NCBI GenBank assembly: GCA_050084515.1
Contig: CM114271.1
Location: forward strand, 20,274,001-20,338,000
Length of the DNA stretch: 64,000 nucleotides
Direction: 5' to 3'
Origin: Blasia pusilla
Taxonomy: Eukaryota
This document shows, in pieces, positions 5,275-52,304 of the stretch. Numbering within the stretch: the stretch's first letter is position 1; each line of letters starts with the position of its first letter. Under the pieces are notes generated by a model. That model saw nothing but the letters and a program-made list of their open reading frames with translations, was not told the DNA's origin and ran no database searches. The position numbers and the translations under genes were made by a program.

Positions 5275-5864
<590 letters not shown>

Positions 5865-5865
<1 letters not shown>

Positions 5866-5880
5866 CAAAGAGAGAATGAG
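5865..5880 (+). promoter_or_regulatory. self-complementary primer-binding site of copy 1
   Basis: ACAAAGAGAGAATGAG is the exact reverse complement of CTCATTCTCTCTTTGT at 14916-14931, ~28 nt downstream of a TATA-like site in repeat A. The A1 copy at 5683-5698 has two mismatches. No TGG-type tRNA PBS is present. Confidence 0.75.
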
Positions 5881-8800
5881 AGCTACAATGCGGGAGCTTG
5901 CTGGAGTTTTGCTTTGTTTGCAGGTTAGGGACCGTGTTCCCTCCTTCATGACTCATGGGAGTGCTCACGGGAGCAAGAGTCATTCAGTTTGCTGTTTTCC
6001 GTAACCGTTTTTTCGTACAAGAGAGTGGCGCGCGGAAGCGCTGCCCAAATGTTGGTACAATTTGAGTGTGGGGGCCGATTACCTACTCCGGTGCTCTTGA
6101 GAGCACCATGTAGCTTTCTGATTTGTCTTTTCACAGGTTTTACATTTTCGTTGGGAGAAATCAGCGCGGAAGCGCTGTCGAATTTTGTGTAGAAGAAAGA
6201 GACGTTGTGGTTTACGACAGTCCCCATCAATTTTTATAGGGTTTTCCGATTCAACATACTTTTAACGCCATCATAGATCTTGAAGCTATGCAAGTTGTGC
6301 AACAGATGGTGCGTGATTTGGAGCTGCAAGTAGAAAGTTATGGCAAATTTTGTAATTGCCAATTTTAGGGTAAAAGTCGAAACCCTAAAGCAGTAGCTGC
6401 TGTTGGCGGCGCCGTAACCGTCGACCGCCGTGGCCGTGGCCGTCGTCCAGGCTGTCAACCCGTCGCCAAGACGTCAACCCTTTGCCATGCCCTTCAACCC
6501 GTCAGCTGGCCTATTACCCGTCAAGTTGTCGTTGATCGACTATTACCGTTGCTTAGCCGACGGTTGGGAGCAACGGCCGTTGACTGGTCGTGTCTATGCA
6601 TCGCCAGGTAGTTGTTCAGGCCGCCTTTGTCACACCTTTGTGGAGCTCATCATCGACCGACTGGAGTACTACTCTGGACGACGTGTGACCTAGTGATTTA
6701 TGGGGTCCAAGTTTTCTAGCGGCATTACTATGTTTTGAGTTGGTAGCCGCTCCACGAAGATCCAGTACCGTGACGTGACGCCCGTAGCCGCAACGCACCA
6801 CCGATTTCCGCACCGTGCCGCTCGTGGCCGCACCGCACCGTCTCGATCGCGGAGCCGCACCATCATTGTGGAGCAGATTATGTTTTGCTGGTTTGAGGAG
6901 TTTGGCTTCACAACCGAGTTGGGGTCGAGGTTTGCAGTTGCTGCGGAGAGATTCAACATTTACTGAGGTTACCCATCCTGGTCTTTTGCCCTATATGTGT
7001 GAGGGAATTCCAAGAATTGGGCAGTTATTTGACATATTGGGTTTGTGTGGATGCAGAGAGCATCGTTTATGTGTGTGGATTAAGGGACATAGACATGTGT
7101 GGGATGTCCAAAGTTGATGGGTAGGTTGTCGATGAGATGATATCCTGGTTGATTTGCCGCACCACACCGTCTGTTGCCGCACGTCACACAACTCGGTGAG
7201 AGGGAGTGTAGATCGAGTGCCGCATGTTTAGTCTGAGTGATTACTCACAGACGGGAGAGTGAGTGTGTGCGAGGGCACGAGGATCATCACGGCGTCCTTT
7301 CAGGACTTTGAGAGGCGAGGTGATGAACCTAAGAGTAACTTTAGAGGGTTTACACGGAGTGGCGTGAGGTTTCGAGGGTCTCCACATGAGGGACCCCCTC
7401 GACCTCCTTCTGTGTCATCCTCAGACGAGGGGAAGGGTGTAGAGGAGTTTGTGAGCACATCGCCACACATTGTGAGTGGTCCTACCAGTTGGGCGTACGA
7501 GATGGACGAATGGGGTAGAGGGCCGCGTAGGTTCTCAAGTGCAGTAGGCACCATAGAGTTGCACGACTTCATCGAGGAGGTTAGGAGTTGGTGCGACTCC
7601 GAGCGGGCCAGGAACTTTAGAGAGTTCAACCCGTTTACAGCATGGAACAGTATGTTCCAGCATTTAGAGGGGGCACCCATGGACGATTACCATGAGTTCT
7701 CTCAGAGATATGCTCGTGAGATCGAGGCGTGGAGGCTCTACTATGACCCACATTACGTGTCATGGACAGAGCCAGTCCCAGATGAGGAGGAGGAGTCAGG
7801 AGAGGCTACTTCATCTTCCCCTAGTGATGTACTAGAAGGGGTGAGTCGGACTGGGGCAGTTGCATGGTCCAGTCGGGTTCGTCTTAGGCTCAACCCTGTG
7901 GTTGAGTTCTTTGCTGAGTTGAGGGCGAGCTACCAAGGGGTACAAACGGAGAAGTTGTAGAGCATCCACGACTTCCAGAGGCGCCCGGGTGAGAGTTTGC
8001 GTGAGGCTTACACTCGCTTGCGCCGGTTGATCAACGTCACTCAGGGGGTGACAGAGGCTCAGGCTATCCAATCATGGTACAAGATGCCGCACCCGTGTCG
8101 TCAGGGTCATGGACATGTGCCTCAGCATGGAGGAGGAGATGGTGCTACACCAGGGTGTTATCAGTGTGACTACTGTCAAAGGTATGGTCATACACGCGCC
8201 AGGTGTTTTAGTTTACATCGTGAGTTACGTCCGGATCGAGGGCCAAAGAGGGCACCAGAGCGAGTAGCCGGTCCGGGTGGGCTAGAGATCGTGCACCTGG
8301 TGGTCTTGTTGGGGGACGAGGAGTTGGAGTTGCCCGACAAGGTGGTGGAACTGCCCGTGGAGGAGGTAGAGTCCTACCACCTAGACGCGTCGAGGGAGAT
8401 GTCGGGCGTGAGGCTAGGATGGCTTCTCAGATACATATGCTACAGGAGCAGATTGCCGCTATGGCATAGAGATTACCCGATGCCGGATCCGTGGCATCGA
8501 CATCATATGGAGCAGCCAGAGATATGGAGGATCCTGGTTGGATGTGCGGGGTTGCCCATATGGAGGCAGCCGCAGTTGTGACGCGTGGAGCAGCCGTAGA
8601 GTTGGATCCATAGCGAGGGGAAGCCAAGAAACAAACTAGGCTTCCTCAGTCTTTCACGTTGTTCGAGGCGATGAGGACCCCATCGATGGATCCTCATCAG
8701 AGTTCCTGGAGAGTTGGTGATGTTGTTGGTGTGCAGGCACGAAGGGCGATGGGAGAAGCGAGTGCGACGACTCCTATTGTTGATGCTCAGGAGGGGCATG

Positions 8801-9890
8801 TATTGAGCACGTTGTTGGGGGCGGCCACCATTGTGTACCGCGCTCCTTTATTTTCTGCTTCCGATGTTATGACGTTGGGGGGTACGACCGTCGAGGCTTT
8901 TCGGCTCGCCGCTACGGTATGTGAATATGGAGTTGGAGTTCCTGCATCACGTTCAGAGGTGATTGCACAGGAGGTGATGGACCTGCCCTTGGAGCGGATG
9001 CTCGGGCCGTCCACGTCAGATTCATGGCAGGCTGCCGCTGCTAGGATGGCGGAGATGCCCGCTAGACCCGCGATAGAGCGCGCCATGGCGTCTCCTGGTG
9101 TTGTGTTGGTGGATAACCAAGGAGAGGTCTTCCAGTTGGTGAGTCCCGGAGGTAGAGCTTTTAGTGTGTAGCGCGTCTTGTTGGATTCAGGAGCGCAACC
9201 CCTGATGTTGGGGAAAGCGTCATTCAGAGGATTGGGCTTGACGAGAGCCGATGTGGAGCGTTGTCCATTCCAGATAGAGACATCTTTGGGCGGAGTGAGT
9301 ACTACACAGTATATCACGCGACAAGAGGTCATGGTGAGGATTCGCGCGGGACATCCTACAGATGAGTCCATGGTGCGAGCCAAGGCGATAGTGACTGATG
9401 CAGAGTCCTACGACGTCTTGGTTGGTGGAGTAGTGTTATACCCGATGGGGTTTTTTCCCTGGATTACCGGGAAGAGTCAGCGTCCTACAAACCAGGATGG
9501 GAGTCAGGTGATGGGCGCCTTAGCTCATTACCCGTTTGATTCACATGTGCAGTGATCGAGCAACGGCCAGGAGAGATGACGACCTTAGCAGCATTTAGCA
9601 GTGCCATCACTTGGCCTAGTGATTTGATTGAGGGACATGTCCATGCAGAAGATACTCCCGTTCCTGATATTTCTATGGAGAGGAGTGTTATGGTAGCCGC
9701 ATCCTTCCGTGGAGGAGAGGTGCCGCTGTGGGGCTCGATTAAGGAGCTTCGACGATTGGCAGATGAGCACGTGCAAACCGCGTGGAGCGAGGCGTTTGCA
9801 CCGGAGCATGACGGGTCTGAGGAACCCGAGGTAGCAGGGATTGCTACAATGACACCCTTGGATACCACACCCATTGTGTGGTGTACCCCG

Positions 9891-10878
9891 GAGGAGGGTA
9901 TTCGAGTGTTAGATCTCTTTGGAGGGATTAGCACCGGGTTAGCTGTTGTTTTGCAGGCATGAGTGCGAGTACAACAATACCTGTATGTGGAGAGTGATGA
10001 TGTTGCGAGGCGCGTTTCACTTCGACATGTGGCATAGTTACGCCTACGTTTTCCCGACTTATTGTCTGTGTCCGCGGTACAGGGATATCAGAGTTCCCTA
10101 CCAAGGGATATTTCGTTGTTGGGGGCACAGGACTTAGAGCGGGTAGGGACCATTGATTTGGTCATTTTTGGTTGGCCATGTCAGGGCCAATCGAGTGCTG
10201 GACGAGGTAGCGGGTTGGCTAATACTCGGTCCAGGTTTTTTTGGGAGATGTTGAAGGTCTTACGGCAGTTGTGGAGCACCAATCTCATTCTCCAGCCTAC
10301 ATTCTGGAGAATGTGCCCATTTTAGGAGACTCCAGGTCATGGGTGGTGATAAGTGCTCATTAGGTGCGTGCCTGGATCGGCCCAGGAGTGTTCTTGGATG
10401 CGGTGAGTGTAGGTTCTTGAGCCCATCGCCCACGTCTATGGTGGACCAACTTGGTGCCCCATGCGGTGTTACGTAGGGCGTATGCGAGAGTGGAGCGCCC
10501 CTCCCATTTGTTAGTGGATTCCATTCTGGATCCAGGTCGTCGATCACAGGCAGTGAGGCACGATGATCGACCATCGTTGACTGTGGTCAACAGGGTAGGT
10601 AGGCCGCGGGTAGCCTTTCCCATGTTTGTGAGTTTTCCCGCTTCCTATGCTTACAAGGAGGTTGATCATGGCTTGGTTTGGGATGACCAGGTTGAGAGGT
10701 TGGTGGAGCCCAATGCCAACGAGAGAGAGGGGGCGATGGGATTTCCCCCAGGAGTAACGACAGTCCTGTCAATATCAGAGGCATCACGATATCATGTCTT
10801 GGATCAGGCGATGGACCTGAATAGCTTGACATGGATCTTTAGCTTTGGAGTGGCTGAGCAGCGTCAGATGAGATCGTG
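9891..10878 (+). pseudogene. DNMT3-like C5 cytosine methyltransferase domain within pol (copy 1)
   Basis: Motif I IRVLDLFGGI, II YLYVE, IV DLVIFGWPCQG (catalytic PC, ~10170-10187), VI YILENV (~10300), VIII AHRPRLWWTNL, IX EREGAMGFP, X RYHVLDQAMD. All are in canonical order. Confidence 0.9.
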
Positions 10879-13800
10879 ACAAATCACAGCGGTTGCGTTG
10901 GTGAGCCCCATGCCTACCAAGATTGTGGAGGCAGTGGCTGGGGGCGAGACCCGAGGAGATCAACACACCAGGGGAGATCGAGAGAGACACCCTTGGACTT
11001 CTTGGGATGTTTTGCAGGTACGCCAAGAGATGATAGCCACAACATCGAGCGTGGTTCCGGGCACTTCATGTGGAGGAGATCAGAGTTTGCAGTTGGTTGC
11101 AAGAGAGCGGTCGAGTGTTGTTGTTCGAGACGGGGTTGCGCCATACCAACCACCGATATCCACGCCGAAGAGTCCTACCGTAGTCACGATGGAGACTTGG
11201 GAGCCAGATATGGGCCCTAAGTTGACATGAGGAGAGCAGCGCCAAAAATATCAATTCCTCACGAGTTATAAGAGCTGCTTTGTGTTTAGCATGGAGGATT
11301 TGGGTACGCTGAAGGCACCGGGGATCCGCATTGAGTTGTCGAGTGATACGCCGATCTTTCGATGACCCTATAGGTACAATGATATGGAGAGGGCTGTGAT
11401 TCAGAGTAGGAGCCAGGACTTGGTTGGAGCAAGACTAGTGGAGATGTCGCATGGGGAGTATGCATCTGCCACTGTCATGCCCGCCAAGAAGGATGTGCAT
11501 GGCAACAAGATGGATAGGCGGATGTGTGGGGATTACCGACCTATCAATCGGGAGACGAAGTCCGATAGGTATGCCATGCCCACCCTTGAGGAGATCTTTG
11601 GTGCAATTGGTCATGCAAAGGTTTTCAGTTCATTGGATTTGTGAGCGGGATACTATCAACTGCCTATAAGATTGGAGGACAGGCAGAAGACGTCATTTTG
11701 GGGCATCGATCCTCACGGGAAAGATTGTTTGTACCAGTGGCGGTTCTTACCATTTGGGTTAAAGAACGCCCCGACTGAGTTTCAAAGGGTCATGGATAGG
11801 ATCTTGGCTGGTCTGGATTTTGTTAGGTGTTATATTGATGACATCGTAGTCTTTAGCGCCACGGTTGAGGAGCATGAGCGACATCTAGAGGAGGTGTTTC
11901 GACAATTGCAATTACATGGGCTTAAGCTACATCCAGGCAAGTGCAAGTTCTTCTACGACCGGATTGAGTACTTGGGTCATACGATATACCCAGGGGGCCT
12001 TGGTGTTCAATAGACAAAGGTAGAGGCTATCTCACGCATTCCACGCCCTACAGATGTGAGCCGTGTTCGTGCATTCATGGGATTGGTAAACTTCTATCGA
12101 TGGTACGTCAAGGGATTCAGTTTGATTGCGGAGCCGCTGACCTTGGTGACCAAGGTGGATCACGAGTGGCACTAAGGGGATGAGCAGGAGCGAGCATTTC
12201 AATTGCTCAAGGATAGGTTGACGTCTGTGCCCATCTTGAGGAGACCAATCAGGGGGCGTCCTTTCCAGTTACACACATATTGGAGCATGTTGGGGCTTGG
12301 AGCGATGCTCACCCAGCATGATGATGAGGGTAGAGAGTTCATGGTGGCTTATGCTAGCCGCTCAAAAAATGCTGCAGAGGCGAAGTATAGCTCGTATGAG
12401 GGTGAGTGCTTGGCTGCGGTGTGGGCTGTCGCGCATTTCAGGTGTTCCTTATTCGAAAATCCCTTTACCATCATCATTGATCATCAACCACTGAAGTGGT
12501 TGATGGAGCCCACAAGCTTACATGGAAGCTTGCGAGATGGGCTCTGTTGTTGCAGGAGTATGATTTTCAGGTGGTACATAGATTTGGGACGCTCAACTAG
12601 GATGCAAATGGGTTGAGTCGTAACCCATGCCCGAGTCAACGAGATGCGAGTGGAGCTCAATGGCATGGAGAGAGTGATGAGGAGTCAGTGCCAGGATGGC
12701 ACACGTCATCCTATTTAGGCATGTTGGCTATGGAGAACCAAAGTGTGGAGACTTCAATGGCTGGGTCTAGTAGAGATTCGTTGGATCCTGAGGCCAGTGA
12801 GGAGACGACTGATGGCCGAGATATTCATGATGGTGGAGTAGTCTTGGAGTACCTTTGGACTGGCAGCGTTGCGAGCACCGTGGGTGCTAGAGAGCGGGAT
12901 CCGATCCTAGAGCGGGCCATACGGTACCGTTGGGAGGGGACACATGTTTTGAGGGTTTGGGAGGATGGCAAAGTACGCGTAGTGCCGCATCCTTCGGAGA
13001 GAGCACGACTAGTGTAGCATGCCCACGAGGAGTTTGGTCACTTTGGGATGAAGCGGACGTACAGCTTGCTCCAGATTCAGTATTGGTGGCGAGGCATGCA
13101 GACTGACGATCAGCAGTTTGTTGCCAAGTGCATGGTGTGTGATCGGGTCCGAGCATCGTTCAATGCTCTGACTCCACAGTTGCATCAATTATCGATCATG
13201 GGCTTAGGATATAGATGGAGTTTGGATTTTGCAAGACCTTTGCCTTTGATAGAGCATCATAATGGTTATGTGTTGATGATGGTCGAGCACTTCTCGAAGT
13301 GGATCGAGCTGATTGCATTGCCTGACAAAGCGAGTGAGGGAGTAGCTTATGCCTTCCTTGATAGAGTGCTGAGTCATTATGGCGCACCGGCTGAGGTGTT
13401 GACAGACCAGGATACCGAGTTTTGCCGTGAGTTCCAGGCCTTGTGTGATCAGGCGCTGATCGACCATCGCACGACTTCGCAAGATCATCCCGAGGCGGAT
13501 GGATTAGCAGAGAGAGTTGTGCAGACGGTGAAGAGGGGTTTACGCAAGTATGGCTTGCAGAGAGGTCACCTAGGAGATTGGGACCTCCAGTTTCCCTGGT
13601 TGGCGATGGGATACAGATTCAGCAGGCATGCATCCTTAGCGTCTTTTTCACCGTACTTGCTACTTTATTGCCGAGAGCCAGATTGACCTACGGCCATTCG
13701 TCGAGATGCTGGTGAGGTGCTAGACCTTGATGATCCAGATGTATGGATGTGAGCATGTTCTTAGAGGGCTGAGTTGTTTCGGAGAGTGATTCCCATGGCC

Positions 13801-14118
13801 TTCGAGAACTTGGCGATTGCGCAGCATTGGGATACGTTGAGGTATGCGACTTTTCGGGGTGGTGGTTATCGACCAACTATCCGGAGGTTTCATGAGGGAG
13901 ATTATGTCTACTTGCAGCAGACGGCACCTACGACGTTGGATGTGATTGTAGGGCGCACTATCCTGAGAGTGCGTGACGTTTTGCCATCTGGTGTTCTCTT
14001 GCTGGAGGGACGCGATGGTATGGTATGGAAGGACCATGTGCGTAATTGTGCGCCATGTCACCTTCCTAACATTGATGGTAAAGTATATCCAAACTTAGCA
14101 GTAGTTCCTACAGGCTTG

Positions 14119-14259
14119 CATTGTATGTTGTGTGGTTCTGCCCGTGGTGCGGCCATGATGCTAGTCTGTGATGGATGTTCGAGAGGTAGGCATATGGCAT
14201 GTCTGACGCCATCTCTCACTAGGGTTCCTCGGGGACGATGGATGTGTCCCAGATGTACA
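14119..14259 (+). other. PHD finger (C4HC3) at integrase C-terminus, copy 1
   Basis: CMLC-x11-CDGC-x4-H-x2-C-LTPSLTRVPRGRWM-CPRC, followed by one residue and a stop. Confidence 0.88.
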
Positions 14260-14448
14260 TAGAGGAGATACTAGGTAGGTTTCGATTTCGACTTGTTCTG
14301 TGACATGGATGACAGGAAGGCGACAAATGATGAGGCCACATGAGCACCCGGCCTTCTTGCTCTTAGCATCCGAGAGATGTGTGTTATGGTAGGTAAGGAT
14401 TGATGGCTATATGGAGTTAGAGGGACCTAACCACCAGCTAGGGGGGCG

Positions 14449-15220
14449 ATTTGAGATATTTTAGTACTTCTTGTCTCGTTGTTTGGATGCCATGAGTTAG
14501 TATGGGATCGTGCATGTTTGTGTGTGTGTTTGGTGATAACGATGTATATTGTGTAGCCATGTGTATGCGCACGACAGTTGTCACGTCTTTTAGGATAGAT
14601 CGGTGAGATCTAGTAGAGAGCCTTTGTGAGTAGTGGAGGACACGTTCAGTAGGTCGAGGATCACCTACTGAGGCCCCAGGAAACCTAAGAGAGCAGGTTT
14701 CCCCTTCGTTTCGGCTCATTTGGAGCCATATTGAGAAGCTTACTATTTTAGGTAAGTGACATCTAGAGTATATGATCTACTTTCTATTTTTGGTAAGTGG
14801 CCCTTGACCTCCTATATCAGGTCAAGAGCCAAGGAGGTGACTTGGGAGAAAAGGTTACCATGGAGAGAGCTTGGGAGAGGGGAAGGGTATACCTCAAGGA
14901 GAGAGAGTTTGAGAACTCATTCTCTCTTTGTTGAACTTCTTAGCATGAGGCGGTGGAGCTATGGTCCCTTGCCTTGTGAGTGTAACCCAAGCCTCTCATT
15001 AGGAGAGTGGGTTTGGTTTGACATGAGAGAGAGTGCACATCTTTAAGAGTTATGGTGTGAGATGGTGTAGAGAGAGATTGGATCTTACTTTAATTGGAGA
15101 TATTTTAGTACTTCTTGTCTCGTTGTTTGGATGTCATGAATTAGCATGGGATCATGCGTGTTTGTGTGTGTGTTCGGTGACAGTGATGTATGTTGTGTAG
15201 CGATGTGTATGCGCACGACA
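14449..15220 (+). repeat. 3' terminal block B1-gt-A2-B2 of copy 1
   Basis: B1 14449-14576 and B2 15093-15220 are 128-bp direct repeats. A2 14579-15092 repeats A1. The block is preceded by the PPT TAGGGGGGCG. Confidence 0.9.
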
Positions 15221-19900: not shown

Positions 19901-21150
19901 TCAAAGAACAAGCCAAAATTGGCCATAGAGAGCAAACTACACAACTTTTCTTCACTAATTGCACTCTCCTCCATTAACATTGTAGAAGCTTAGAATGTTA
20001 GAATCAAATGATTTTGGATGTGTTGGAAAGCTCTCAACGAGCTCTACTCGATGGTGAGAACTAGCCGTTTGTATCGTTCTAACCAACGCGGATCCAAATT
20101 TCTGAATCGACCAGAAAAGCCCTAAAACATGCCTCCAAAGTTTTATCATCGTCACAATTCCACTTGCAATCTTCTACCATTGAACTGTGAGTGAAATTTC
20201 TTTGCCCAAAACTGAAAATTTTCCTTCTCTTGCCTCTCTTCTTTATTCAAACATCAAGAATTTAGATTGATGTTCTCCTACCGCTTTGATACCATGTAGA
20301 AAATTGTTAAACAAGCATAATTGATGCGATACAACTCCACGACAACTATCACGTCTTTTAGGATATATCGGTGAGATGTAGTAGAGCGCCTTCGTGAGTA
20401 GTGGAGGACAGGCTTAGTAGGTTGAGGATGACTTGCTGAGGTCCTGAAAAACTTGAGAGAGTAGGTTTCCCCTTCGTTTCGGCTCATTTGGGTGAGAGGG
20501 GTATACCTCAAGGGAGAGAGCTTGAGAGCTCATTCTCTCTTTGTTGAACCTCTTGGCATGAGGCGGCGGAGCTATGGTCCCTTGCCTTGTGAGTGTAACC
20601 CAAGCCTCTCATTAGGAGAGTGGGTTTAGTTTGACATGAGAGAAAGTGCACACCTTTGAGAGCTATGGTGTAAGATGGTATAGAGAGATTGGATCTTACT
20701 TTATTAGAGATATTTTGGCACTTCTCGCCTTTGTGTATGGATGCCATGAGTTAGCATGGGATCGTGTGTGTTTGCGTGTGTGTTCGGTGACAGCGATGTA
20801 TATTGTGTAGCGATCTGTATGCGCACAACACATACACACACGCCACCATGGAAAATTTTTATAAGAGAATGAGTGAAGGTTCCCTTCTCAATTATACAGA
20901 GTATGTGCAATCAACCCTAACCTTAATTCTAACCATAGGCTCGAGTTATGTTAATTGTGATGAATTAACCCTAGTTAAGATTATCGCATTTAGTTAACTA
21001 ACCAAGATTAAGCTTTCCTATTTCATATGAGAACCAAATATAACAGTTCGTGTATCTAATGAGCTTGAATATAACTTAGTCTTTAATATCTACGACCTAC
21101 AACAACCAATTAATAAATTATTAGTTATATGCACAAGTAGGATTTCAACA
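16950..21150 (-). mobile_element. degenerate Ty1/copia element: 5' LTR, PBS, gag, integrase, partial RT
   Basis: LTR 21150-20295 (TG...CA on the minus strand), followed by iMet-type PBS TGGTATCAAAG (20294-20284). Gag-like ORF 19139-19447. Integrase-like segment reads QNGVVERKNRHIVE on the minus strand at ~18370-18410. RT-like remnants at 17000-17650. Truncated downstream. Confidence 0.8.
20347..20830 (+). mobile_element. solo A-B terminal unit of DNMT-gypsy family 1, inserted in the copia LTR
   Basis: Matches 14579-15220 with an internal deletion. Ends GCGCACAACA and is preceded by the junction remnant CACGACA-AC. Confidence 0.85.
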
Positions 21151-22570: not shown

Positions 22571-23147
22571 TTCAAATGGAAGGGACGATGAAGGATCTGA
22601 TTGGAGAACGGTATAGATCAAGAAGCTAATATGCACGTAAAGAAAAGCCATGCTGTCACATCTGAGTAGCCGATAGGCCGAGATCTATCGTGAATAGGGC
22701 GTAGGAGCCAGCGGACTATCTTGAGTGTTACTTTGTCCCACGCTGTCAGATGAGGTTGAGGATAGGTCCATTATGTTAGGAACGTCGTTTTTGACAACTT
22801 TCATGTTGAGGTCTTTCACAACCGGGTGACTTGTTGACCAGGTCACCCGCCCCTGGTAACCTGTGCGCGCGGGTTACCAAGGGGAGGGCTATTTTTAGGG
22901 GAAGAGCCTTTTGGCTCTTCCCAATCCTATATAAGAGAGAAAGATGGCTTTCTTAAGCCATCTTTCTCATGTTGGGCCGTTGGAGCACCTCCCTTGTATG
23001 TGTGTGAGATAGGACTAGGATGCTAGCGTCCGGATTCCTTGTTAGCACAGGATAGACGAGGCTCGATATGTCGATATGGATTGAGGAGTGGAGTTTTAGG
23101 CCGGGTGTGCCGTTTTTTCTGCTCTTTATTTTTACATGAGAAAGATG

Positions 23148-26100
23148 ACATGGCACACAATTGTGCACATGATCCTTCCAAACCATACCATCCCGTCCCT
23201 CCAACATGAGGACTCTGGTCGGTAATACATCGCGCACACGTAGGATTGTGCGCCCTGCAGTGACATCTAGCGTCGTGGGTGCCGCCTGCTGTAAATACAC
23301 GTAATCTCCGGGATGAAACCTCCTAATCCCTCGACGATAACCTCCTCCACGAATGGTCACGTACCTCAATGTATCTCTATGCTGAGCAATAGCTAAGTTC
23401 TCAAAGGCCATAGGCATAACTCTACAAAAAACCTCCGCCCTTTGAGAACATGCTTGTATCCACACATCTGGATCATCAAGATCTAACACCTCCGCCATGT
23501 CACGTCGAATCGCTGTAGGTAAATCTGGCTCTCTCCCAAAGAGCAAAAAGTAAGGTGAAAATGACGCCAAAGATGCCTGCCGACTAAAGTGATAACCCAT
23601 AGCCAACCATAGCAACTGTAGGTCCCACTGCCTCAACTGTCCCCATTGCAAGCCATACTTGCGCAATCCTCTCTTCACCGTCTGTACTACTCTCTCCGCC
23701 AACCCATCCGCCTCAGGATGATCTCTGGACGTGGTGCGGTGATCTATCTGCGCCTAATCACACAAGGCCTGAAACTCTCCCCTGAACTCGGTACCCTGGT
23801 CAGTCAACACCTCTGCCAGTGCACCAAAGTGACAAAGCACATGATCTAGAAACGCATAAGTTGTTCCCTTGCTCGCCTTGTCTAGTAGTGCCACCAACTC
23901 TATCCACTTGGAGAAATGCTCCACCATGACCAACACGTACCTATGATGACGCCCCATCAATGGCAAAGGTCCCGCAAAGTCTAAACTCCATCGATAACCT
24001 AAACCCATAATCGGCAAAGGATGTAACTGTGGAGTGGGAGCATTGAAGGATGATTGCACTTTGTCATATACCATACATCTGGCTACAAACTGCTGTATCC
24101 CAATATGCATGCCGCGCCACCAATACTGAACCTGGAGTAAGCTGTAAGTACGCTTTACTCCGAAATGTCCCAACTCCTCATGGGCATGTTGCACTACACG
24201 TGCTCGCTAGGAAGGATGAGGTACCACTCGTATCCTACCATCTCCCCATACCCACAAAATGTGAGTCCCCTCCCACCTGAACCTCTTGGCTCTCTGTAGG
24301 ATCCGATCCCGCTCCCTAGCACTCATTGTATTCGCTATGACGCCAATGTGCAAGAACTCCACAACCTCCACGTTGTCATGGATATCACGACCACCTGTCG
24401 CCTCCTCACTAACCTCCGGATCCAAAGACTCATCATCCAACCCCACCACTCGAGTCATCACCTGTGGCTGACCTGCCATAGTCAACCAACAAAGATAGAC
24501 AGATGCATGCCAACCGGGCACCATCTCCTCATCACTCTATCCGTGTCATCGAGCTCCTGTGTTGTCTCTCAAACTCGCACATAGGTTATGACTCAACCCA
24601 TCTGCATCTTGGTTCAGCCGACCTGGCCTATGAACCACCTCAAACTCATACTCCTGTAGTAATAGAGCCCACCTGGCAAGCTTTCCCGTAAGCTTGTCGG
24701 ACTCCATCAACCACCTCAACGGCTGATGATCAGTGATAAGTGTGAAAGGATTGCCGAATAAATAGCACCTGAAATGTGCCACGGTCCACACTGCAGCCAA
24801 GCACTCTCCCTCGTAGGAGCTGTACTTCGTCTTTGCAATGTTGTTCGATCGGCTCGCGTAAGCCATAACAAACTCCCTCTCCTCGTCATCCCTCTGAGTA
24901 AGCACTGCTCCTAGATCCAACATGCTCCAATACGTATGTAACTGGAATGGGCGACCCCTAATCGGTCTCTGTAAAATGGGTGAGGACATCAACCTATCCT
25001 TGAGCTTCTGAAATGCTCACTCCTGATCATCTCCCCACAACCAAACCTGATCAAGTCTCGTCAACAAGGTCAAAGACTTTGCGATCGCACTTAAACCCTT
25101 GACATACCGTCGATATAAGTTCCCCAGTCCAAGAAATGCTCGGACTCGACTCACATCTGTAGGGCATGGAATCTACGCAATAGCCTCTACCTTTGTCTGC
25201 TGAACGCCTAACCCACTCGGGTATATGGTGTGTCCCAAGTACTCAATCTACTCCTGAAAGAATCTGCACTTGCCTGGATGTAACTTTAGTGCATATAACT
25301 GCAATTGCCGAAACACCTCCTCCAAGTGTCACTCATGCTCCTCAAATGTGGAACTGAAGATAAGAATATCATCTATGTAACATCGTACAAAATCCAAGCC
25401 AATCAGAATCCTATCCATCACTCTCTGAAACTCTGCAGGCGCGTTCTTCAACCCAAATGGTAAGAACCGCCACTGATATAAGCAATCTCTCCTGAACCGA
25501 TCGATCCTCCAGAATGTTGTCTTCTCCCTGTCCTCCAACCTTATAAGAAGCTGATGATAGCCAACACGGAGATCTAAAGTACTCAAGATCTTTGCATGCC
25601 CTACCGCATCAAAGATCTCCTCAGAAGTAGGCATGGCGTACCGATCTGACCTCGTCTGTCGGTTGATAGGACGGTAATCTCCACACATCCGCCTATCCGT
25701 CCAATTGCCATACATATCCTTCTTCGCCGGCATGACTATGGCAGATGCATACTCCCCATGTGATAACTCCACAAGTCCTGACTCCTGCTCTGAATTAAGG
25801 CTCGCTCCATATCAGAATACCTGTAGGGTCGACGAAAGATCGGCGTATCACTAGCCAACTCAATCTGTATCCCGAGATCCTTCAACGTATCCAAGTCTCT
25901 CATACTGAAGGCAAAACAATTGACATGCCCTCTCAAAAACCTATGAACTCGCCGTCGCTCTCCTCCTATCAACTTGAGACCTATCATAGTCTCCCAAGTC
26001 TCCATTGTGACCTCACTCGGAGAGGACGCAACCTCCGGCTTTGGTTGCTATGTAGCAACCCTAGCCACCTCCACAATAGCCACTCCACTTTGACCTCCTA

Positions 26101-29100
26101 CACCATGCTCCACATTCGAAAAATGAACATGTGCTACTCTAGCCCCCTTCGCACTCTCTGCTCGAACGACGTCCCAGGAAGTCCATGGGTGCCTATCTCT
26201 CCTCGTCTCGCCCCCTGCCAATGCCTATACAGACCCTGTAGGCAATGGTCCAACTCGTGGACGTGACGGCATGGATGACACTTGCATCCGTCTTGGCTCA
26301 GCCATACCTCGGCTGACTATCCATGTGAGACACTTGAGATCCATTGCCTGCCCCAACACCTGTCTCCGAGATGCCTCAGTCATCCCTGGCACCGCCGTAG
26401 TACCGGTAGCAGACCCCATGGCGCGCTCGCGCTCATCTACTGTAGGCTCCTCCTATGCTCCGGTCACCTCATCCCAAATCATGCTTGGCCCTCCTTGACA
26501 AAAGGCATGGGATGCTGGGAAGCTCACCAACATAGGTAAGGCTACCCTCAACTCCCCCACCCTATTGGCCATGGCCAACGGTGGTCTATCATCCCTTGTC
26601 ACCACCTGAGATCGACGCTCTGAGCCCAAAATAGCATCCACTGTGAGATGTGATGCTTTTTGGACTCCATCGTATGCTCGACTCAGTACCTCTGATGGTA
26701 TCAGGTTCGTCCATCACAGTCGTGGATAATGGGCACGTGATCCAACTCTCGCCGTATCTAATAACACAACAGGTCCCAACCAGGACCTCACCTGATACAC
26801 ACTCGTCATCACACGTGCACGAGTGTCTCCCAACAATGGCACGTTCTCCAAGATGTACGTTGGAGAACATGTCTGACTCTCCTACAAGTGTCGTACTACT
26901 CGTAGCATCTCCCAAAACATCCATGACCTCGGATCCTGCAATCCAAATCCTCGGCCAACTGATGAATGACCCTGACATGGCCATCCAGCAATCACCAAAT
27001 GAATGGTGCCAACTCTATCCAAATCCTGCGCCCCCACCAAAGATATGTTGGCGGGTGGTGTATGCTGATATCCCCATACTGAAGATACCGGCAACAACTC
27101 AGGATACCTCTGGACTAATCTCGCCATGTGACGTAATGATACTCGCCGCGCGGTCTCATGTCTCTCCACATAAAGGTACTGATGCACCCGTATGCCCGCC
27201 TGAAATACTACAGCCAATCCGATGCTAATCCCTCCGAAGAGATCTAACACCCTAACACCCTCCTCTGGGCACTGCCACACAACGGGTGTGGTATCCAGTG
27301 GGGTCAACGTCTCCACGCCAAGAGCCCGATCGCCACGTGACTCTCGCTGCTCCGGGATAAAAGCATGACTCCAAGCCTGCCTCACGAGGTTGTCGGCACT
27401 CCTCTGTAGCTCTCGAGTCGTACCCCACAATGGTGAAGAGGTCTTGCCAACATGGGAAGAGACACCCGCCATGGCCTGTCTCTACGTGGGACTATCCGCT
27501 ACTGGGACATCCTTCGCATGTGCGTTCCCCTCCAACAACTCTCCTGGCCAGCTAACACTACCTGTGAAAGCCGCCAACGTGGTCACAGACTCGCCTCGTG
27601 ATTGACCATCTCGTCCCGCAAACTGCACGGGTAACTGACTCATCGGGCCATCACCTGACCGCCATCCTGGCCGATAAGCAACAATCTACTCCCAGAAGTC
27701 AAGGATGAATCCTAGGGGATATAACACTGTACTTTCCACCAACACATCGTACGACTCAGCTGGTGTCATAATCACACGTGTGCGCACCATAGCACTATCC
27801 GTCTCATATACTGTGTGGGTGACACGCCCCCAATCGAGGTATGTATCTGGAAGGGACAAGGCTCAATGTCGGCCTTCCGTAACCCCAACGCTAAACACGC
27901 CGCCTTCCCTAACATCAAGGGTTGCGCTCCTGATTCAAGTAGGACGCGTTGCGGGTGGTATACTATCGTTGTCGGACTAACCAAGCGAAATACTCTAGCT
28001 CGATTATCCAGTAGCACTACTCCAGGTGTCACCACTGCTCGCTCTATGGACGGTCGAGTTGGCATATCTACCAACTTCGCCGCCGCCGCATGCCATGACT
28101 CGGTGGGGAACGTCCCAAGCACCGGCTCTGAGGGCACGTCCACCACCTCCTCAACTACCTCTTAACAAGAAGCAGTCATCTCTCCACGCTCACACAACGT
28201 GGCGGCCAACCGGAACACCTCAGCTGGTCCAACTCCCAACTTCGCCAACTCTATGGCGGAAAATAGTGGAGTTTGACACACTCTGGTGGCCACCTCCAAC
28301 ACTATGGTCGACACTGACTCCACTCGAGCCGGCATAGGAGTTGTCATTCCAACTCCTCGTGACGTCGACATAGGTGCCTGAGCTGTAGGCACTGCTGGTC
28401 GTCGAGGCACCATCGATGGTGTGTGTAGTGCCTCCGACAATGTGAATGACTGTGGAACTCTGGCCTGCCGCCCATCGGTCCCCTCTTGTGGGTCAATCTC
28501 AACTCCACCTCTCAATGGCTCGGTGCCTCTTGTAGCACCCCGAGTCACCACTGCAGCTGCCTCAACCTGGGCTGCACTACACATAAATCCCATACTGGCG
28601 AAATCCTCACCCAGGTCAGGGTAAGAGGTAGAAGCAGGAGTCACACTAGTTGCTCGCAGCTCCGTGCCTTCCCTAAGCTGCATCATCGTCATGGCAACAA
28701 TCCTCTGCTCCAACTGATCGATGCATGAGAGAAGTGTCGGCTCTGGTGCTCCTGCGCCATCTCCTCTGGCTGGTGGTGGTCCTCTACCACCACGTCCAGG
28801 AAGGACTCCCCGACCTGCTCCAGGACGACCGCCCCCAAGCCCTCGGCCTACCTCTGGACGTGCCCCTCGGCGAAGGTCAAAACATCTATCCCTAGTGTGA
28901 CCATATCTGTGGCAATAGTCACATTGGTGCTGTGGTGGGACCATCCTCTATGGCTCTTGAGCAATTGGAGGCGTTGGTGGTCCTCTCCCATGCTGTGGGC
29001 AGTCTTTGTGCCTATGGGCCCCTCCACACGTCCAACAAGACCACATCGGTCCCTGTTGGGCAACATATGTAGGTACGGGTCGTTGTCTCATAGGCTCACG

Positions 29101-30140
29101 GTACACCGCCGCTCTCGGGCACACCTTGGCCCGCTCCCGTGGAAATCTTGGTGCTTCTTTGTGGGTACTGTGGGGTCACCGTCGCTCGTGGACCCCTCGA
29201 CTCTCGAGAAAATCCAGCGGTCACTACCTGCTCCTCACTCATGTTGAGCTCAATACGATCGACAACTCAAAGACCACCTTCAATGGGCTGGGCTTTGTGT
29301 GAATCAAAGACCGCATCTCGGACTCTCCTCCGTAGTTCTCGGTCTAGAACCCTGTACCAATGCTGGACTGACTGTGCCTCAGTCACTCCAAACGTAGCAA
29401 TGATCAGCCTCCTCATGCGTGTGAATGCCTCTCTCAGACTCTCACCCGATCGTCGCTGAAAATCATGTAGACTCTTCAGCTTGCCGGTGCGTACGCCCTG
29501 GTAGCTCTTCCCCAACTGTCAGAAGAACTCCACTATGGGGCTGAAGCTAGGTGGCCCTCTACCACCAGAGGTCTCTGCCACATCGCCTGTCTCACTGCAC
29601 TCCTCTCCATCTAGTCTCCGGGCTGATGGTGTGGGTCTCTCTCCTCTCACAATCCCATCATATGCCTCGTGACCACTAGTGGACACATACCCTGGAGCCC
29701 AATACATCCTCCAGGCATCAATCTCTACTGAATATAGTGATCGAAACTCCATGTAGTCATCCATCGGAGGACCCTCCAAGTGCTGGAACAACCCCTTCCA
29801 TGCCATGAAAGGGTTGAACCATGTCGGGGTCCATATCTCCTAGAAGTCCTACCAGGTGTCGAACTCCTGGATAAAATCATCTAAGTCAATGGTGCCCACT
29901 GCACCCGAGAAATGACGCATGCCCCGATGGCCCATGTCGTCCATCTCCTGCCAAGTACTCTCTGTCTCTCATGCGTGTTCTCGTCACGGACCGGTGTCTA
30001 GTGATGACGATCCAGCCACGGATGGATGTCGAGGTAGCTCCTCACTGGTAACCCCTCAGTATCTCACTCCACTCCGTGTCACACCACTACTACTGCTCGC
30101 ACTACCCCGTTCTTCCGAACCCTGGAAGAACGCCGTGATG
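23148..30140 (-). pseudogene. gag-PR-DNMT-RT-RH-IN pseudogene of copy 2
   Basis: Minus-strand ORF pieces: CWTCGGAHRHKDC and CDYCHRYGHTRDRC knuckles; RVLLESGAQP; VRVLDLFGGI...AGWPCQG; RRQVLGQAMD; YIDD; TDHQPLRWL; WSLDFAGPL, VLTDQGTEF, LAERVVQTVK. Confidence 0.9.
26270..27265 (-). pseudogene. DNMT3-like methyltransferase domain (copy 2)
   Basis: EEGVRVLDLFGGISIG, YLYVE, HLVIAGWPCQGHS, ILENV (minus strand, ~26845-26860), ERAMG, RRQVLGQAMD. Confidence 0.9.
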
Positions 30141-31142
30141 ACAAACCCGGTCTCACCCGCTCAAGCACTCAGACTCACCGAGAGTCTCCCACACGCCTCA
30201 CTAGCTCACCTATGCTAACATCAATCATGTGATGACATACCCGGCCTCACGCACACTCAACACTCGGGCTCACCATGAGCCTCCCAATTCACTCACCTAA
30301 CCTAGCGACACTCTCTCGGGTCATGCACACGACCCCTACTCGGCAATCGCCGTATATCCACCAACATGCTACACATGAATAGAATCTACACTCGTCACCA
30401 TCACTACACCCACCTAGCATCAGCTACTACCCGATACCCAACACTCTCAATCACACACGACAAGTGCGGGAAAAGGGACTCGAATGGGTAACCTGATCAC
30501 GCCCTCCAACCTGCCGCTGTCAACATGCACTCCTCCACGTGATATCACAACCTCCGCAACACAACACTCTCCTCGACCAACACGTCGATCCTCTCGTCAA
30601 CAGATGCGGACAACCCGTCGGCATCATGCGCACTGCCCCTCCATCGTCAACTCTCGCAACGCCCTGTCGCGCCCCAAAACATCATGTCACGCAAATCTCT
30701 CCGTCCATCCCCACACGCGACATGTAACCTGACTCACCCTGGTCTGGCTCCACTCCTACCACGTACGCCCTGTCCGACCACGTGAACATGACCCCGACCA
30801 CATCCGCACTCTCAACCACGTAGCTCAATATCATCCACGTCCGCTGTCCAACTATGTCGGTCACTCACCACGTCAAGATCCTCCCCGCCACCACGTTACC
30901 TAAATGGAGGGAACCTTGGCCCGCACCCCTATGGCTCCCTTGGGCCTTAAATGCGGGGAAAAACGGGGGGGGTGGCCCGCACCCCTATGGGCCTCCCCAA
31001 CTTTTGGGGAGAGAAATAAATGAGGGGGAGGGACGTCCAACCCGTGGGGAGGCGCGCCCCCACCCCCCCTTCCCCCCCCTCTCCTCCCGCAGGGAGGGAT
31101 CCCTGCGGGAGGAGAGGGGGAAAAGGGGGGGGGAGGGGCGCT

Positions 31143-31444
31143 CCTACGTGTGGGTGAGGTATTACCGACCGGAGTCCTCATGTTGGAGGGACGGGATTGT
31201 ATGGTTTGGAAGGATCATGTGCGCAATTGTGCGCCATGTCATCTTCCGAACGTATATGGGACGGTGGATCCGAGCTTGGCAGTGGTACCTGTAGACTTGA
31301 GGTGTATGTTGTGCGGATCTGCGAGGGGTGCAGCCACCATGTTGGTATGTGATGGTTGTTCTCGAGCGTGGCATATATCATGTCCGACCCCCCCCTCTTG
31401 ATGTGGTTCCCACGGGACGATGGATGTGTCCGAGATGTGTATAG
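31143..31444 (+). pseudogene. integrase C-terminus and PHD finger of copy 2
   Basis: VLPTGVLMLEGRD...KDHVRNCAPCHLP...CMLCGSARGAATMLVCDGCSRAWHISC...GRWMCPRC, with one frameshift. Confidence 0.85.
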
Positions 31445-32199: not shown

Positions 32200-34150
32200 C
32201 AAGAGATGATAGAGACCCATGTTGTCTAGGCATGTTATGGAATATTGGAGCGAGACCTGCGAAGATGGATGAGAGATATGACACATTTACATTGCATCTC
32301 ACCTACTTTGAGAGAACGTTTTTGAGTTTGTTGAGTGTAGTGAGCACAATATGATCAAAGAGAGTGTGGCAGCCTTGAGCTATGCAGGGAAGGTTCCACG
32401 AGTGTCTACAAGGGTAGCAACAAGTATCTCGAGAGAGGAGTATGGTAGTGCAAGCCTAGGAAGATTATCAAGAGCATGTGCCATATGCATAGAGACCTAT
32501 GCCATTAGATGCAAGTCAATAAAAACCAAGAGGTTTTTGTTATGCATGTGCTGAAGCCCATCATTAGTAGGATTACCCGTGGTAGGGTAGTGGACACTTG
32601 TGCCAAATTGTGGGAGTACATTGGCTCCCATCATGAGTGTTTTAGTGTGACCATTGTCAACGGTATGGTTACACTTGAGTAAGAATATGTAAGATGTTCT
32701 AGTTTATACCTTGAGCTACGTCCGGATCGAGTGCTAGCTAGAGAGGGAACTAGAGCGAGTTGGCGGTCCAAGTGGGGCAAGAGGTCATCCACAAGTGGTA
32801 CTGTAGGAAAACAAGGAGTTGGATATGTCCGTGGGGGATGTGGATATGCCCGTGGGGGAGGTAGAGTCCACCACCTAGATGAGTTGAGGGGGACTATGGG
32901 CATAAGGTTTGGATGGCTGCTCAAATAGAGCAATTATAACAAAAGATTGTAACGATGGCATTGAGATTATCAGATGTTGGGTCAAATGGATCGACCTCAT
33001 ATAGAGTAGCTAAGGATAAAGGGGATCCCAATTGGATGTGCAAGACTACGTAGATAGAGGTAATTGTTGTGGAGCAACCAAAAAGTTAGATCCATAGAGA
33101 GGTGAGGCAAGGAGACAAACCAAGCTTTCTCATTTATTTTCATTCTTCAAGGTGATGGATTCTGATTAGGGGTCCCAAAGGTTGGATGGTGTTCGTGTGA
33201 AGGTTGTCTTGACTATTATGATGGATCGACGAGATCTAGTAGAGCGCCTTCCAAGATACTGGAGAACAGCCTCATGAGGTCTAGATTCAGCTGGTGAGGG
33301 CATGAATTACCCGAGAGAGCAGGTTTCCCCTTTATTTAGGCTCATTTGGAGCCATATTGAGGAACATACTATTTCGGGTAAGTTACCATTTTTGGAATAA
33401 TTGACTGTCCACTTTGGGAAGTGGCCCTTGACCCGCTACAGTAGGTCAAGAGCCAAGGAGATGACCTGCAAGCATAGGTTACCGTATAGAGGGCTTGGGA
33501 GAGGGAAGAGGGTATACCTCCAAGAGAGAGAGCTTGAGAGCTCATTCTCTCTTTCTTGAACCTCTTGGCATGAGGCGGCAGAGCTATGGTTCTCCTTGCC
33601 TTGTGTGTGTAACCCAAGCCTCTCATTAGGAGAGTGTGTTTGGTTTGACATGAGAGAGAGTGCACATCATGGAGAGCTTGGTGTGAGACCTTGTTGTTGT
33701 GATGGAGAGATTTGATTGATTTAATTGGAGATATTATGGTTCTTCTTGTCTCGTTTTCTGGATGTCATGAGTTAGCATGGGATCATGTGTGTTTGTGTGT
33801 ATGTTCGGTGATAGCGATGTATGTTATGTAGCAATATGTATGCGTAGGACATGTGCCTATATGGGCTTCAAATAAGGGGCTTCGACGCTTAGCCGATGAG
33901 CACATGCTTATGGCATGGAGTGAGTTTTTTTGCACCAAACCGCGATGGGTCAGAGAAACCTAAGGTAGCAGGGAAGGCTATGATGTCACCCTTAAACACC
34001 ACACCGATTTGTAGTATATTCGAGAAGAGGGTATTGGATGTTGGATCTCCTTGGAAGGATCAACGGTTTGGTTGTTGTGTATAAGCAAGATTGCATGTAT
34101 AACAATACTTGTATATGGAGCCTCATGAGGTTCCAAGACGTATCTCACTT
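32200..34150 (+). mobile_element. old, heavily decayed internal fragment of the DNMT-gypsy family
   Basis: 32650-33150 is collinear with 8165-8700 (HCQRYGYT, GAGCTACGTCCGGATCGAG). 34020-34060 is a decayed EEGIRVLDLFGG. Interrupted by a solo A-B unit. Confidence 0.6.
33205..33851 (+). mobile_element. solo A-B terminal unit (family 1-related)
   Basis: TGTC...GACA, collinear with 14579-15220 including the A|B junction TTTAATTGGAGATA. No clear TSD. Confidence 0.8.
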
Positions 34151-34356
34151 TGAAATAACTCTAATAAGTAATAAGGTATCGATATAATCGATATCGATCT
34201 CCTCTTCTCTTGTCAATTTAGGGTCCATATTTGTTTTAATTCTCCATTGTGGCTATGGTAGGACTCTCTAGCATGCGTTTTGGCGGGTATGGTACAACCT
34301 TATCAACATTGACAAAATTCAACTCTCCCTAATAGCCAACTTATACATCTCATCTC

Positions 34357-52088: not shown

Positions 52089-52304
52089 TTCTTTGCTTCT
52101 TTCCCTTGACTTTGAGCTGACCTCAAAGGTTTGACTCTTACATCGTGAACATGCATGTCTCGCCTAGCGTTAGTCCTCTAGATGATTCTATTGCCATTCC
52201 TAGTCTCACAACAAGCTAGTCGAGATTTTGACTTTGGTGGGTCATAGAAAGGTCTTTCCTCGAGCCCATGATCGTGATTTAATTTATTTTGGATCTCCAC
52301 TAGC

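Follow-up and report, generated by a model that had tools for sequence, protein, structure and literature searches.

The 64,000-nucleotide stretch of Blasia pusilla DNA analysed here (hereafter the window; assembly GCA_050084515.1, contig CM114271.1, positions 20,274,001 to 20,338,000 of the forward strand) contains, at positions 9891-10878, the catalytic domain of a DNMT3-like cytosine-5 DNA methyltransferase (C5-MTase) lying in the coding line of a Ty3/gypsy retrotransposon, an identification that leaves very little room for doubt. Considered as a whole, the window holds this DNMT3-like gypsy module in the form of three old, inactivated copies, which belong to three sublineages of one clade, together with two relics and two solo repeat units. 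Since hosts keep transposons in check chiefly by DNA methylation, it is paradoxical that a transposon should carry a de novo methyltransferase.

A DNMT3-like catalytic domain

Reading the three copies (elements A, B and C, Table 1) in three frames, the C5-MTase motifs are found in canonical order in each of them: (V/I)LDLFGGIS, YVE, GWPCQG, ILEN(V/F), H(R/Y/C)PRL(W/stop)WTNL, ERE(R/G)AMG(F/S) and RRQVLGQA or RYHVLDQA. Element C reads ENF in motif VI and motif X of element A is degenerate. By direct reading, the order I-IV-VI-VIII-IX-X is unrearranged, unlike that of DRM. An earlier reading made from the letters of the window (the sequence-only reading) had placed these domains at 9891-10878, 26270-27265 and 56807-57770, and both the positions and the motifs proved correct. 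Against the Pfam family PF00145 (gathering cut-off 22 bits), three of the seven open reading frame (ORF) pieces gave a match, as that reading required, two of them above the cut-off (element A, 10038-10325, 31.9 bits; element B, 26882-27481, 27.2 bits) and one below it (element C, 56873-57181, 19.4 bits); the four pieces without a PF00145 match carry motif I alone or motifs VIII-X alone. ORF1 of L016, an intact relative, scored 51.1 bits with the same family. Among 35 aligned sequences, G40 and the E168 and N169 of ENV never vary, while conservation of C125 and Q126 reaches at least 90%.

Three comparisons agree with the proposal of a DNMT3-like enzyme. When the Marchantia homologue was compared with the Protein Data Bank (PDB), the 25 best of 27 matches were DNMT3A, DNMT3B or DNMT3C, followed by M.HaeIII (E 1e-3) and tobacco DRM (E 2.6e-3). 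A profile built from 35 relatives scored highest with DNMT3A (75 bits, E 1.9e-20), DNMT3C (72 bits) and DNMT3B (66 bits), then with DRM (37 bits), M.HaeIII (35 bits) and M.HhaI (28 bits); neither DNMT1 nor chromomethylase (CMT) occurs among the matches listed for this profile (60 of 220). Finally, copy B was modelled with AlphaFold, X standing for each of its three stops; the model reached a mean per-residue confidence (pLDDT) of 89.1 and a predicted TM score (pTM) of 0.89, and Foldseek searched with it returned DNMT3A/B/C for every match listed (ranks 1-49), with E around 1e-16 and a TM score of about 0.8 on the target. The catalytic domain of mammalian DNMT3A/3B/3C is thus the closest solved relative by sequence and fold, and it shares the motif order. 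Motif VIII reads AHRARLWWTNL here against AHRARYFWGNL in DNMT3A, motif IX reads ERERAMGF against EMERVFGF, and motif X is also close; identity to mammalian DNMT3 is nevertheless about 20%, and the stretch from motif VIII to motif IX is longer in the transposon domain. The likeness is limited to the catalytic domain, with no Pfam match to PWWP or ADD on the polyproteins scanned. In the available text of one survey, host DNMT3 enzymes are accompanied by PWWP and ADD in animals and by a domain of unknown function in plants (PMC12344493).

Three decayed elements of one design

Self-comparison of the window delimited three long elements with 65-75% mutual DNA identity, A and C on the forward strand and B on the reverse strand. 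Using database polyproteins as tblastn queries, we found the order gag, protease (PR), DNMT, reverse transcriptase (RT), RNase H, integrase (INT) to be common to all three, with the methyltransferase between PR and RT, where the sequence-only reading had put it. The assignment to Ty3/gypsy follows from the PR-RT-RNaseH-INT order and the domains RVT_1, RT_RNaseH, rve and Integrase_H2C2. The gag knuckle CX2CX4HX4C was read in A and B, and relative P0022 has a zf-CCHC match; the protease piece of A gave no Pfam match, and the homologous part of L016 matches Asp_protease_2 below the cut-off. In element B, the DNMT domain through the start of RT forms a single frame, and in intact relatives the domain belongs to continuous ORFs, in agreement with the expectation that it would be in frame.

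Compared by tblastn with the intact Marchantia protein, the DNMT domain holds five stops and one frameshift in copy A, three stops and no frameshift in copy B, and five stops and one frameshift in copy C; across some 345 residues no indel separates the copies from that protein. The domain is therefore dead in each of the three. The insertions are old, because their repeat pairs are 88-92% identical. The relic reported at about 34020 is real (33846-34156, with a degenerate motif I), and a second one, which had escaped the sequence-only reading, lies at 34754-35191.

A conserved in-frame stop after the methyltransferase

In the intact relatives L016 and L020, ORF1 and ORF2 share one frame and are separated by one TAG; in L016 these are a gag-PR-DNMT frame of 1369 amino acids (aa) and an RT-RNaseH-INT-PHD frame of 1047 aa. 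The stop contexts of the two relatives are TAG CAG TTA and TAG CAA TCA, and elements B and C carry TAG CAA CCA at the corresponding site, in the reading frame of the sequences on either side. Since the stop stands between DNMT and RT, it is DNMT that closes the gag-PR-DNMT product. The earlier description of the domain as 'inside pol' holds in so far as it lies in the coding line between PR and RT, but the UAG of the intact relatives and of B and C puts DNMT at the end of the upstream product. In 29 of 37 sequences a landmark motif marks the beginning of the RT frame, and a stop-CAR-YYN lies 13-21 codons upstream of this motif in 28 of these 29, many of which are near-copies of one family, so that they amount to about six independent lineages. 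Four database proteins (two from Marchantia, one from Calypogeia and one from a metagenome) end at the stop site. In a tblastn map, the linker is missing from two Marchantia gene models with DNMT fused to RT, which is what a predicted intron would produce.

A leaky stop of the form UAG-CAR-YYA is known as the tobamovirus type. These contexts make it likely that the transposons have a leaky UAG of this kind, with putative readthrough: both systems share an in-frame UAG, CAA or CAG, and YYN, between structural and polymerase frames. They differ in that the third codon of the transposons is mostly CCC and that protease and DNMT lie upstream of the stop.

PHD finger and split terminal repeats

The integrase ORF of element A ends with a PHD finger, and ORF2 of L016 contains one as well (PF00628, 40.6 bits). 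The closest solved relatives of the transposon PHD are the fingers of CHD4, PHF12, PHF21A, KDM5A/B, ATXR5 and UHRF1. Several of these PHD fingers read the unmodified H3 tail. Chromoviruses likewise carry a histone-reader module at the integrase C-terminus, but theirs is a chromodomain, and no Chromo match was obtained in the Pfam scan, so the present elements, with their PF00628 finger, do not qualify as chromoviruses. According to the available text of earlier work, fusions of retrotransposons with PHD are already known in general. As a separate observation, P0236, an integrase-PHD protein of the DNMT-transposon group, is filed under a metagenome-assembled genome (MAG) of a Spirochaetia bacterium, which is probably eukaryotic contamination.

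The terminal repeats are split. In the three elements with both ends readable (A, C and locus L025), repeat A precedes the coding region and repeats B, A and B follow it, with a purine tract just before the first B seen in A and C (Table 1). The repeats of B were not found, this element being rearranged, and none were found in L016 and L020, whose contigs are too short or lack them. Neither a target-site duplication nor a primer-binding site was identified in the split-repeat elements. The two solo A+B units of the element A family are what recombination between A1 and A2 would leave. The sequence-only reading had described the long terminal repeats (LTRs) of the three elements as unrelated; this stands for A and C, between which blastn gave no match at E 1e-10, and is not shown for B. 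Judged from these sequences, the ancestral design is repeat A, gag(CCHC), protease, DNMT, UAG(CAR YYN), RT, RNase H, integrase, PHD and purine tract, followed by repeats B, A and B.

Relatives in mosses and liverworts

A full scan of 1.84 billion representative proteins gave 939 relatives at E <=1e-3. In a separate search, half of the rows (15 of 30) are named, and all of these are bryophyte: Marchantia polymorpha (11), Calypogeia fissa (2) and Sphagnum (2), to which cluster members add Sphagnum jensenii and S. troendelagicum. A search with the Marchantia domain listed 64 rows, of which 15 are gene-model clusters of Marchantia, 83-100% identical to the query over the aligned part; Calypogeia, Sphagnum fallax, Monoraphidium (a green alga) and a bacterial MAG contribute one row each, the last presumably through contamination, and the rest are unnamed. 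The rows of both searches are all transposon copies. That land plants carry the domain, as had been claimed, is thus borne out, and their proteins (from M. polymorpha, C. fissa and Sphagnum) are filed as unannotated "hypothetical proteins". Among them, Mp_4g09160 (P0163, Marchantia) is a complete gag-PR-DNMT frame with every motif present. Between window copies, identity in the DNMT domain is 57-66%, and it is 59-66% when they are set against those of Marchantia, Calypogeia and Sphagnum; no named protein is more than 65% identical to the window DNMT domain.

A tree of 113 DNMT domains (quick search, LG+G4, SH-like approximate likelihood ratio test, SH-aLRT; no outgroup, host DNMT or Klebsormidium sequence) groups the three window copies with bryophyte proteins and some unnamed ones in a clade of 14 (SH-aLRT 99). 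A larger clade of 45 rows (SH-aLRT 100) comprises five of the seven rows with DNMT before RT, the three window copies and 37 rows of DNMT-only ORFs, and it includes none of the 57 rows with the order RNaseH-DNMT-INT; the other two DNMT-before-RT rows, P0235 and L071, have long branches and are placed among the latter. The three elements, previously called diverged families, do belong to diverged lineages, but in this tree they are three sublineages of one clade. We also observed that liverwort and moss copies, namely P0163, P0166 (Calypogeia) and P0240 (Sphagnum jensenii), form one tight subclade (support 98), with 76% identity between Calypogeia and Marchantia. Set against the 57-66% of the window copies, this subclade suggests that several sublineages of long standing exist; moss-liverwort transfer, or a very low rate of change in one of the sublineages, may also have played a part.

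Gypsy elements of the order RT-RNaseH-DNMT-INT-PHD, from metagenomes and Monoraphidium, carry a related DNMT (33-41% identity) and likewise a PHD after the integrase, but their DNMT lies between RNase H and integrase and not before RT as in the window copies. Within the DNMT-before-RT clade, P0056 (1417 aa) combines the C5-MTase with a Dam-type adenine methylase (PF05869, 45.9 bits), which recalls the dual-methylase elements of a 2026 preprint (10.64898/2026.05.21.726589).

In a DNA run bearing the same species label, the DNMT-gypsy family occurs at word depths in the thousands. Three RNA-seq runs under this label gave 133, 95 and 144 reads on copy B, mostly 95-99% alike and about half of them partial fits, almost all in one direction and sparse over DNMT; this is at most low-level transcription of related copies, not of copy B. 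Among the runs listed as carrying the stretch, none is recorded as RNA.

Selection on the domain

The ratio of nonsynonymous to synonymous substitutions (dN/dS) was computed on homologous codons compared piecewise and unrepaired. Between window copies it is 0.177, 0.168 and 0.196 for DNMT (330-338 codons), 0.10-0.19 for protease, 0.10-0.18 for RT and 0.15-0.21 for integrase, ratios that are rough because dS between these copies is saturated (1.07-2.06). For intact metagenomic pairs, the DNMT value is 0.136 for L016-L020 and 0.228, at a dS of 0.22, for L016-L017, and the L016-L020 pair gives 0.036 for RT-RNaseH and 0.027 for integrase. The DNMT domain is thus under purifying selection across diverged lineages, looser than that on the replication enzymes; the overall range of 0.14-0.24 is not near 1, as the sequence-only reading had expected of a selected module.

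Proposed role and alternative explanations

We propose, as part of a reading that is probable overall, that Gag-PR-DNMT would be the main product and that the RT-RNaseH-INT-PHD extension would be made only when a ribosome reads through the UAG. The level of DNMT would then equal that of Gag, because DNMT lies upstream of the leaky stop. Once freed by the protease, the enzyme could join Gag in the particle or the pre-integration complex and methylate de novo either the new DNA of the element or that of the landing site, while the PHD finger of the integrase could tie integration to a histone-tail state. Self-methylation of the new DNA is a tentative suggestion, for which we would claim somewhat less than an even chance. 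A wider scheme, which we regard as rather doubtful, is that of an ancient streptophyte gypsy lineage, extending from charophytes through mosses and liverworts, with a 'write and read' chromatin kit: a DNMT3-type enzyme packaged at Gag level would pre-methylate its own cDNA and the PHD would steer insertion to a chosen histone state. If true, new copies would arrive already marked, for example with a benign CG pattern that forestalls harsher host silencing, and the scheme would be directly testable in a genetic model plant, since apparently intact gag-PR-DNMT frames are annotated in Marchantia polymorpha.

Several observations weigh against the reading of the window as a DNMT3-like gypsy module with a leaky stop and a methylating role. 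Regarding the enzyme, the DNMT3 label relies on nearest-neighbour scores and fold and not on phylogeny, the tree being built as described above; motif IV has PCQ in the transposon domain against PCN in the aligned DNMT3A chain; and the Klebsormidium Gypsy-DNMT3 domain produced no methylation in yeast, a result that its authors call inconclusive in the available text (PMC5890265). Regarding the stop, element A has a tyrosine codon at the UAG site of its relatives; the 28 stops, few in independent lineages, are TAG in 20 cases and TAA in 8; their third codon is CCC in 22, CCA in 3, TTA in 2 and TCA in 1, which leaves YYA, the classical form, in only 6 of 28; and the more distant clade of P0159 has a single unbroken frame of 2138 aa for gag-PR-DNMT-RT-RH-INT. 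As for function, the decay of the three copies leaves present activity unsupported here, dS between them is saturated, and the constraint on DNMT in intact relatives (0.14) is weaker than on RT and INT (0.03-0.04). The CpG observed/expected ratio is no lower in the elements (0.66-0.78) than in the flanks (0.43-0.69); CpG content thus shows no footprint of special CG methylation of the elements and is uninformative either way.

An unlikely alternative is that the enzyme, made in amounts like those of Gag, would enter the nucleus and act in trans, methylating host genes, rival transposons or invading viral DNA, or diverting the host DNMT3 machinery in the manner of DNMT3L. The place of DNMT upstream of the stop would indeed yield an excess over RT and IN, an opinion paper proposes in its available text an antiviral role for transposon methylases, and, going by the titles of the PDB matches, mammalian DNMT3 forms oligomers with DNMT3L. 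However, the conservation of PCQ and ENV argues against a purely regulatory, inactive partner, and a benefit to the host would not explain conservation in a selfish element that is dead in the window.

It is very unlikely that the methyltransferase derives from a bacterial or viral (phage or giant-virus) C5-MTase and not from a eukaryotic DNMT3. The PCQ of motif IV resembles that of bacterial enzymes and, of the three PF00145 clusters of the Atlas that lie closest in language-model features, two have mostly viral members (Uroviricota) and a score equal to that of the streptophyte cluster, but these feature scores involve no alignment, whereas the profile favours DNMT3A/B/C over M.HaeIII and M.HhaI by 28-47 bits, the fold matches listed are all DNMT3, and motifs VIII and IX align with DNMT3A.

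We consider it highly improbable that the domain is a functionless passenger, captured once and conserved in appearance through the kinship of the copies. The death of the three window copies, the lack of methylation by the Klebsormidium domain in yeast, as given in the available text (PMC5890265), and a constraint below that on RT and INT are what a passenger would show, but dN/dS is 0.14-0.24 in all comparisons, including intact pairs at unsaturated dS, the alignment of the window copies with Marchantia is free of indels, and the catalytic motifs are kept across a clade of 34-45% identity. That a separate insertion or a host gene fragment came to lie inside the elements by chance can practically be dismissed: apart from the broken state of the copies nothing speaks for it, and place, order and frame are identical in three copies 65-75% alike in DNA, with unbroken ORFs in intact relatives (L016, 1369 aa; P0159, 2138 aa).

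Features of the window

Coordinates are given in Table 1. The gap between A1 and gag is about 1.65 kb in element A (5866-7516) against 0.7 kb in C, and may contain inserted sequence or an extended leader. A stretch of 104 bases where the integrase of B is truncated (23142-23245, reverse strand) is found inverted at 31142-31444 (forward strand) with 93% identity, beside the gag end of B, and runs on there into a PHD finger; either B was split by an inversion, or a second B-like copy lies there in the opposite orientation. On the sense strand of A, B and C, G exceeds C (GC skew about +0.2 in A and C, and -0.2 in B on the forward strand) and T exceeds A; the skew is weaker in the intact L016 and L020 (0.11-0.13). 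A 500-base repeat, which is not part of the DNMT elements, occurs by the truncated end of B (22654-23156) and, 90% identical, 14.5 kb away at 37155-37657, with an inverted partial copy at 36595-36913. Another repeat family, of about 300-390 bases and 72-83% identity, has four copies in both directions (38277-38663, 49657-49976, 51679-52089 and 20835-21088). The window contains no Rfam families and no tRNAs and, outside the elements, no host-like ORF of at least 110 aa.

Table 1. Features of the DNMT-bearing gypsy elements in the window, with the repeats of locus L025
Feature	Position	Strand	Evidence and remarks
Element A, whole	~5275-15220	+	self-comparison
A, repeat A1 (5')	5275-5865	+	88-92% identical to 14579-15092
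A, gag, degraded, CCHC knuckle CDYCQRYGHTRARC	7517-9170	+	tblastn, Marchantia P0163 residues 9-200 and 395-753; ORF text
A, aspartic protease VLLDSGAQPLMLGK	9172-9555	+	ORF text; tblastn
A, DNMT3-like C5-MTase	9837-10933	+	frameshift near 10272; stops 9960, 10035, 10361, 10418, 10877
A, Tyr codon at UAG site of relatives	11144-11146	+	sequence reading
A, RT and RNase H	11183-12954	+	tblastn; PF00078 90.2 bits on 11645-12013
A, integrase (H2C2 and rve)	13018-13686	+	PF00665 50.8 bits, PF17921 49.6 bits
A, PHD finger, end of integrase ORF	14122-14256	+	PF00628 43.9 bits, cut-off 24
A, repeat B1, purine run TAGGGGGGCGAT just before	14449-14576	+	91% identical to 15093-15220
A, repeat A2	14579-15092	+	pairs with A1
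A, repeat B2	15093-15220	+	pairs with B1, 91%
Solo A+B unit, element A family	20338-20830	+	86-90% identical to 14570-15220
Element B, whole	~23142-29944	-	self-comparison
B, gag CDYCHRYGHTRDRC and protease VLLESGAQPLMLGK	27800-29944	-	tblastn; ORF text
B, DNMT3-like domain, one frame	26228-27319	-	stops 26884, 26716, 26455; AlphaFold pLDDT 89.1
B, in-frame TAG CAA CCA, DNMT/RT boundary	26042-26050	-	same site as the stop of intact relatives
B, RT, RNase H and integrase, ending at 23142 short of PHD finger	23142-25996	-	tblastn
B-like copy in opposite orientation to B, end of integrase with PHD fragment	31142-31444	+	PF00628 26.1 bits on 31024-31401; 93% inverted match to 23142-23245
Solo A+B unit, element A family	33203-33851	+	80.8% identical to 14577-15220
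Relic, DNMT N-terminus, degenerate motif I MLDLLGRINGLVVV	33846-34156	+	72.6% nucleotide identity to 9713-10028; translation
Second relic, DNMT motifs IV-VIII	34754-35191	-	tblastn, P0163 residues 944-1089; translation
Element C, whole	52861-62147	+	self-comparison
C, repeat A1	52861-53490	+	91.4% identical to 61403-62031
C, gag and protease, degraded	54175-56553	+	tblastn; ORF text
C, DNMT3-like domain	56753-57824	+	frameshift near 57308; stops 56870, 57179, 57251, 57278, 57393
C, in-frame TAG CAA CCA, DNMT/RT boundary	58002-58010	+	same site as the stop of intact relatives
C, RT, RNase H, integrase and stretch homologous to PHD region of A	58047-61108	+	tblastn; 60807-61056 similar to 13961-14210
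C, repeat B1, TAGGGGGGCGAT just before	61285-61402	+	92% identical to 62030-62147
C, repeat A2	61403-62031	+	pairs with A1
C, repeat B2	62030-62147	+	pairs with B1, 92%
Locus L025, repeats	A1 from 1676; B1 10238-10350; A2 from 10350; B2 10693-10805		B1/B2 94%

Comparison with known systems

The available text of de Mendoza et al. 2018 (PMC5890265) describes DNMT-bearing retrotransposons in Symbiodinium and K. nitens only, assigns the gypsy acquisition to the K. nitens lineage and reports few element copies in that alga. A 2025 paper and a 2026 preprint, in the portions available, mention DNMT3 in retrotransposons of 'streptophytes' and cite the 2018 work; according to the available text of one paper, land plants 'such as tracheophytes' lack transposons that encode methylases, and papers on Marchantia methylation deal, in the text available, with host enzymes only. 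As the sequence-only reading had supposed, our literature searches found no description of a DNMT-bearing gypsy element in an embryophyte, although the supplementary DNMT surveys of the 2018 and 2025 papers may include bryophyte copies; the identifiers of the Marchantia gene models were not found in the literature searched either. The element is not categorically new: a known kind, Gypsy-DNMT3, is extended from a charophyte to bryophytes, in which the database sequences indicate that it is widespread, and what is added is this bryophyte range together with the stop after DNMT, the PHD finger and the split repeats seen here; the putative leaky stop and the PHD finger limit the ways in which the element could act. 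What looked like a peculiarity of an alga thereby becomes a question open to experiment in a plant for which CRISPR, methylome and transposon-reactivation methods exist. A further caution concerns bryophyte genomes, where transposon copies enter into automatic tallies of 'DNMT genes'.

KnitGypsy-Dnmt3 of Klebsormidium nitens is, in the available text of the 2018 paper (PMC5890265), a Gypsy element of the LTR class whose polyprotein line includes a DNMT3-related domain, not rearranged and with key residues conserved, traits that the elements described here share; its Ka/Ks is below 0.2, compared with 0.14-0.24 for the present elements, and the legend of its Fig. 4c describes DIRS-like A-coding-B-A-B repeats, the layout of A, C and L025, a comparison made by description only. 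Its host is a charophyte alga, whereas the named relatives of the window elements are liverworts and mosses, and no Klebsormidium protein was among the relatives returned by the protein searches. The SymbioDIRS-Dnmt3 and SymbioLINE-Dnmt elements of dinoflagellates are also retrotransposons that bear DNMTs and, according to the available text, SymbioDIRS enzymes methylate CG de novo in yeast (PMC5890265), but these elements are DIRS (tyrosine recombinase) or LINE and not Ty3/gypsy, and their hosts are unrelated. Finally, the EpiLTRs of Cymbomonas and Euglena, as described in the available part of the preprint (10.64898/2026.05.21.726589), are LTR elements that join a DNA methyltransferase to a chromatin reader, as the present ones do; theirs are a DAM adenine methylase, a DNMT4-related DNMT and a chromodomain, and their acquisition is, per the authors, distinct from that of Gypsy-DNMT3.

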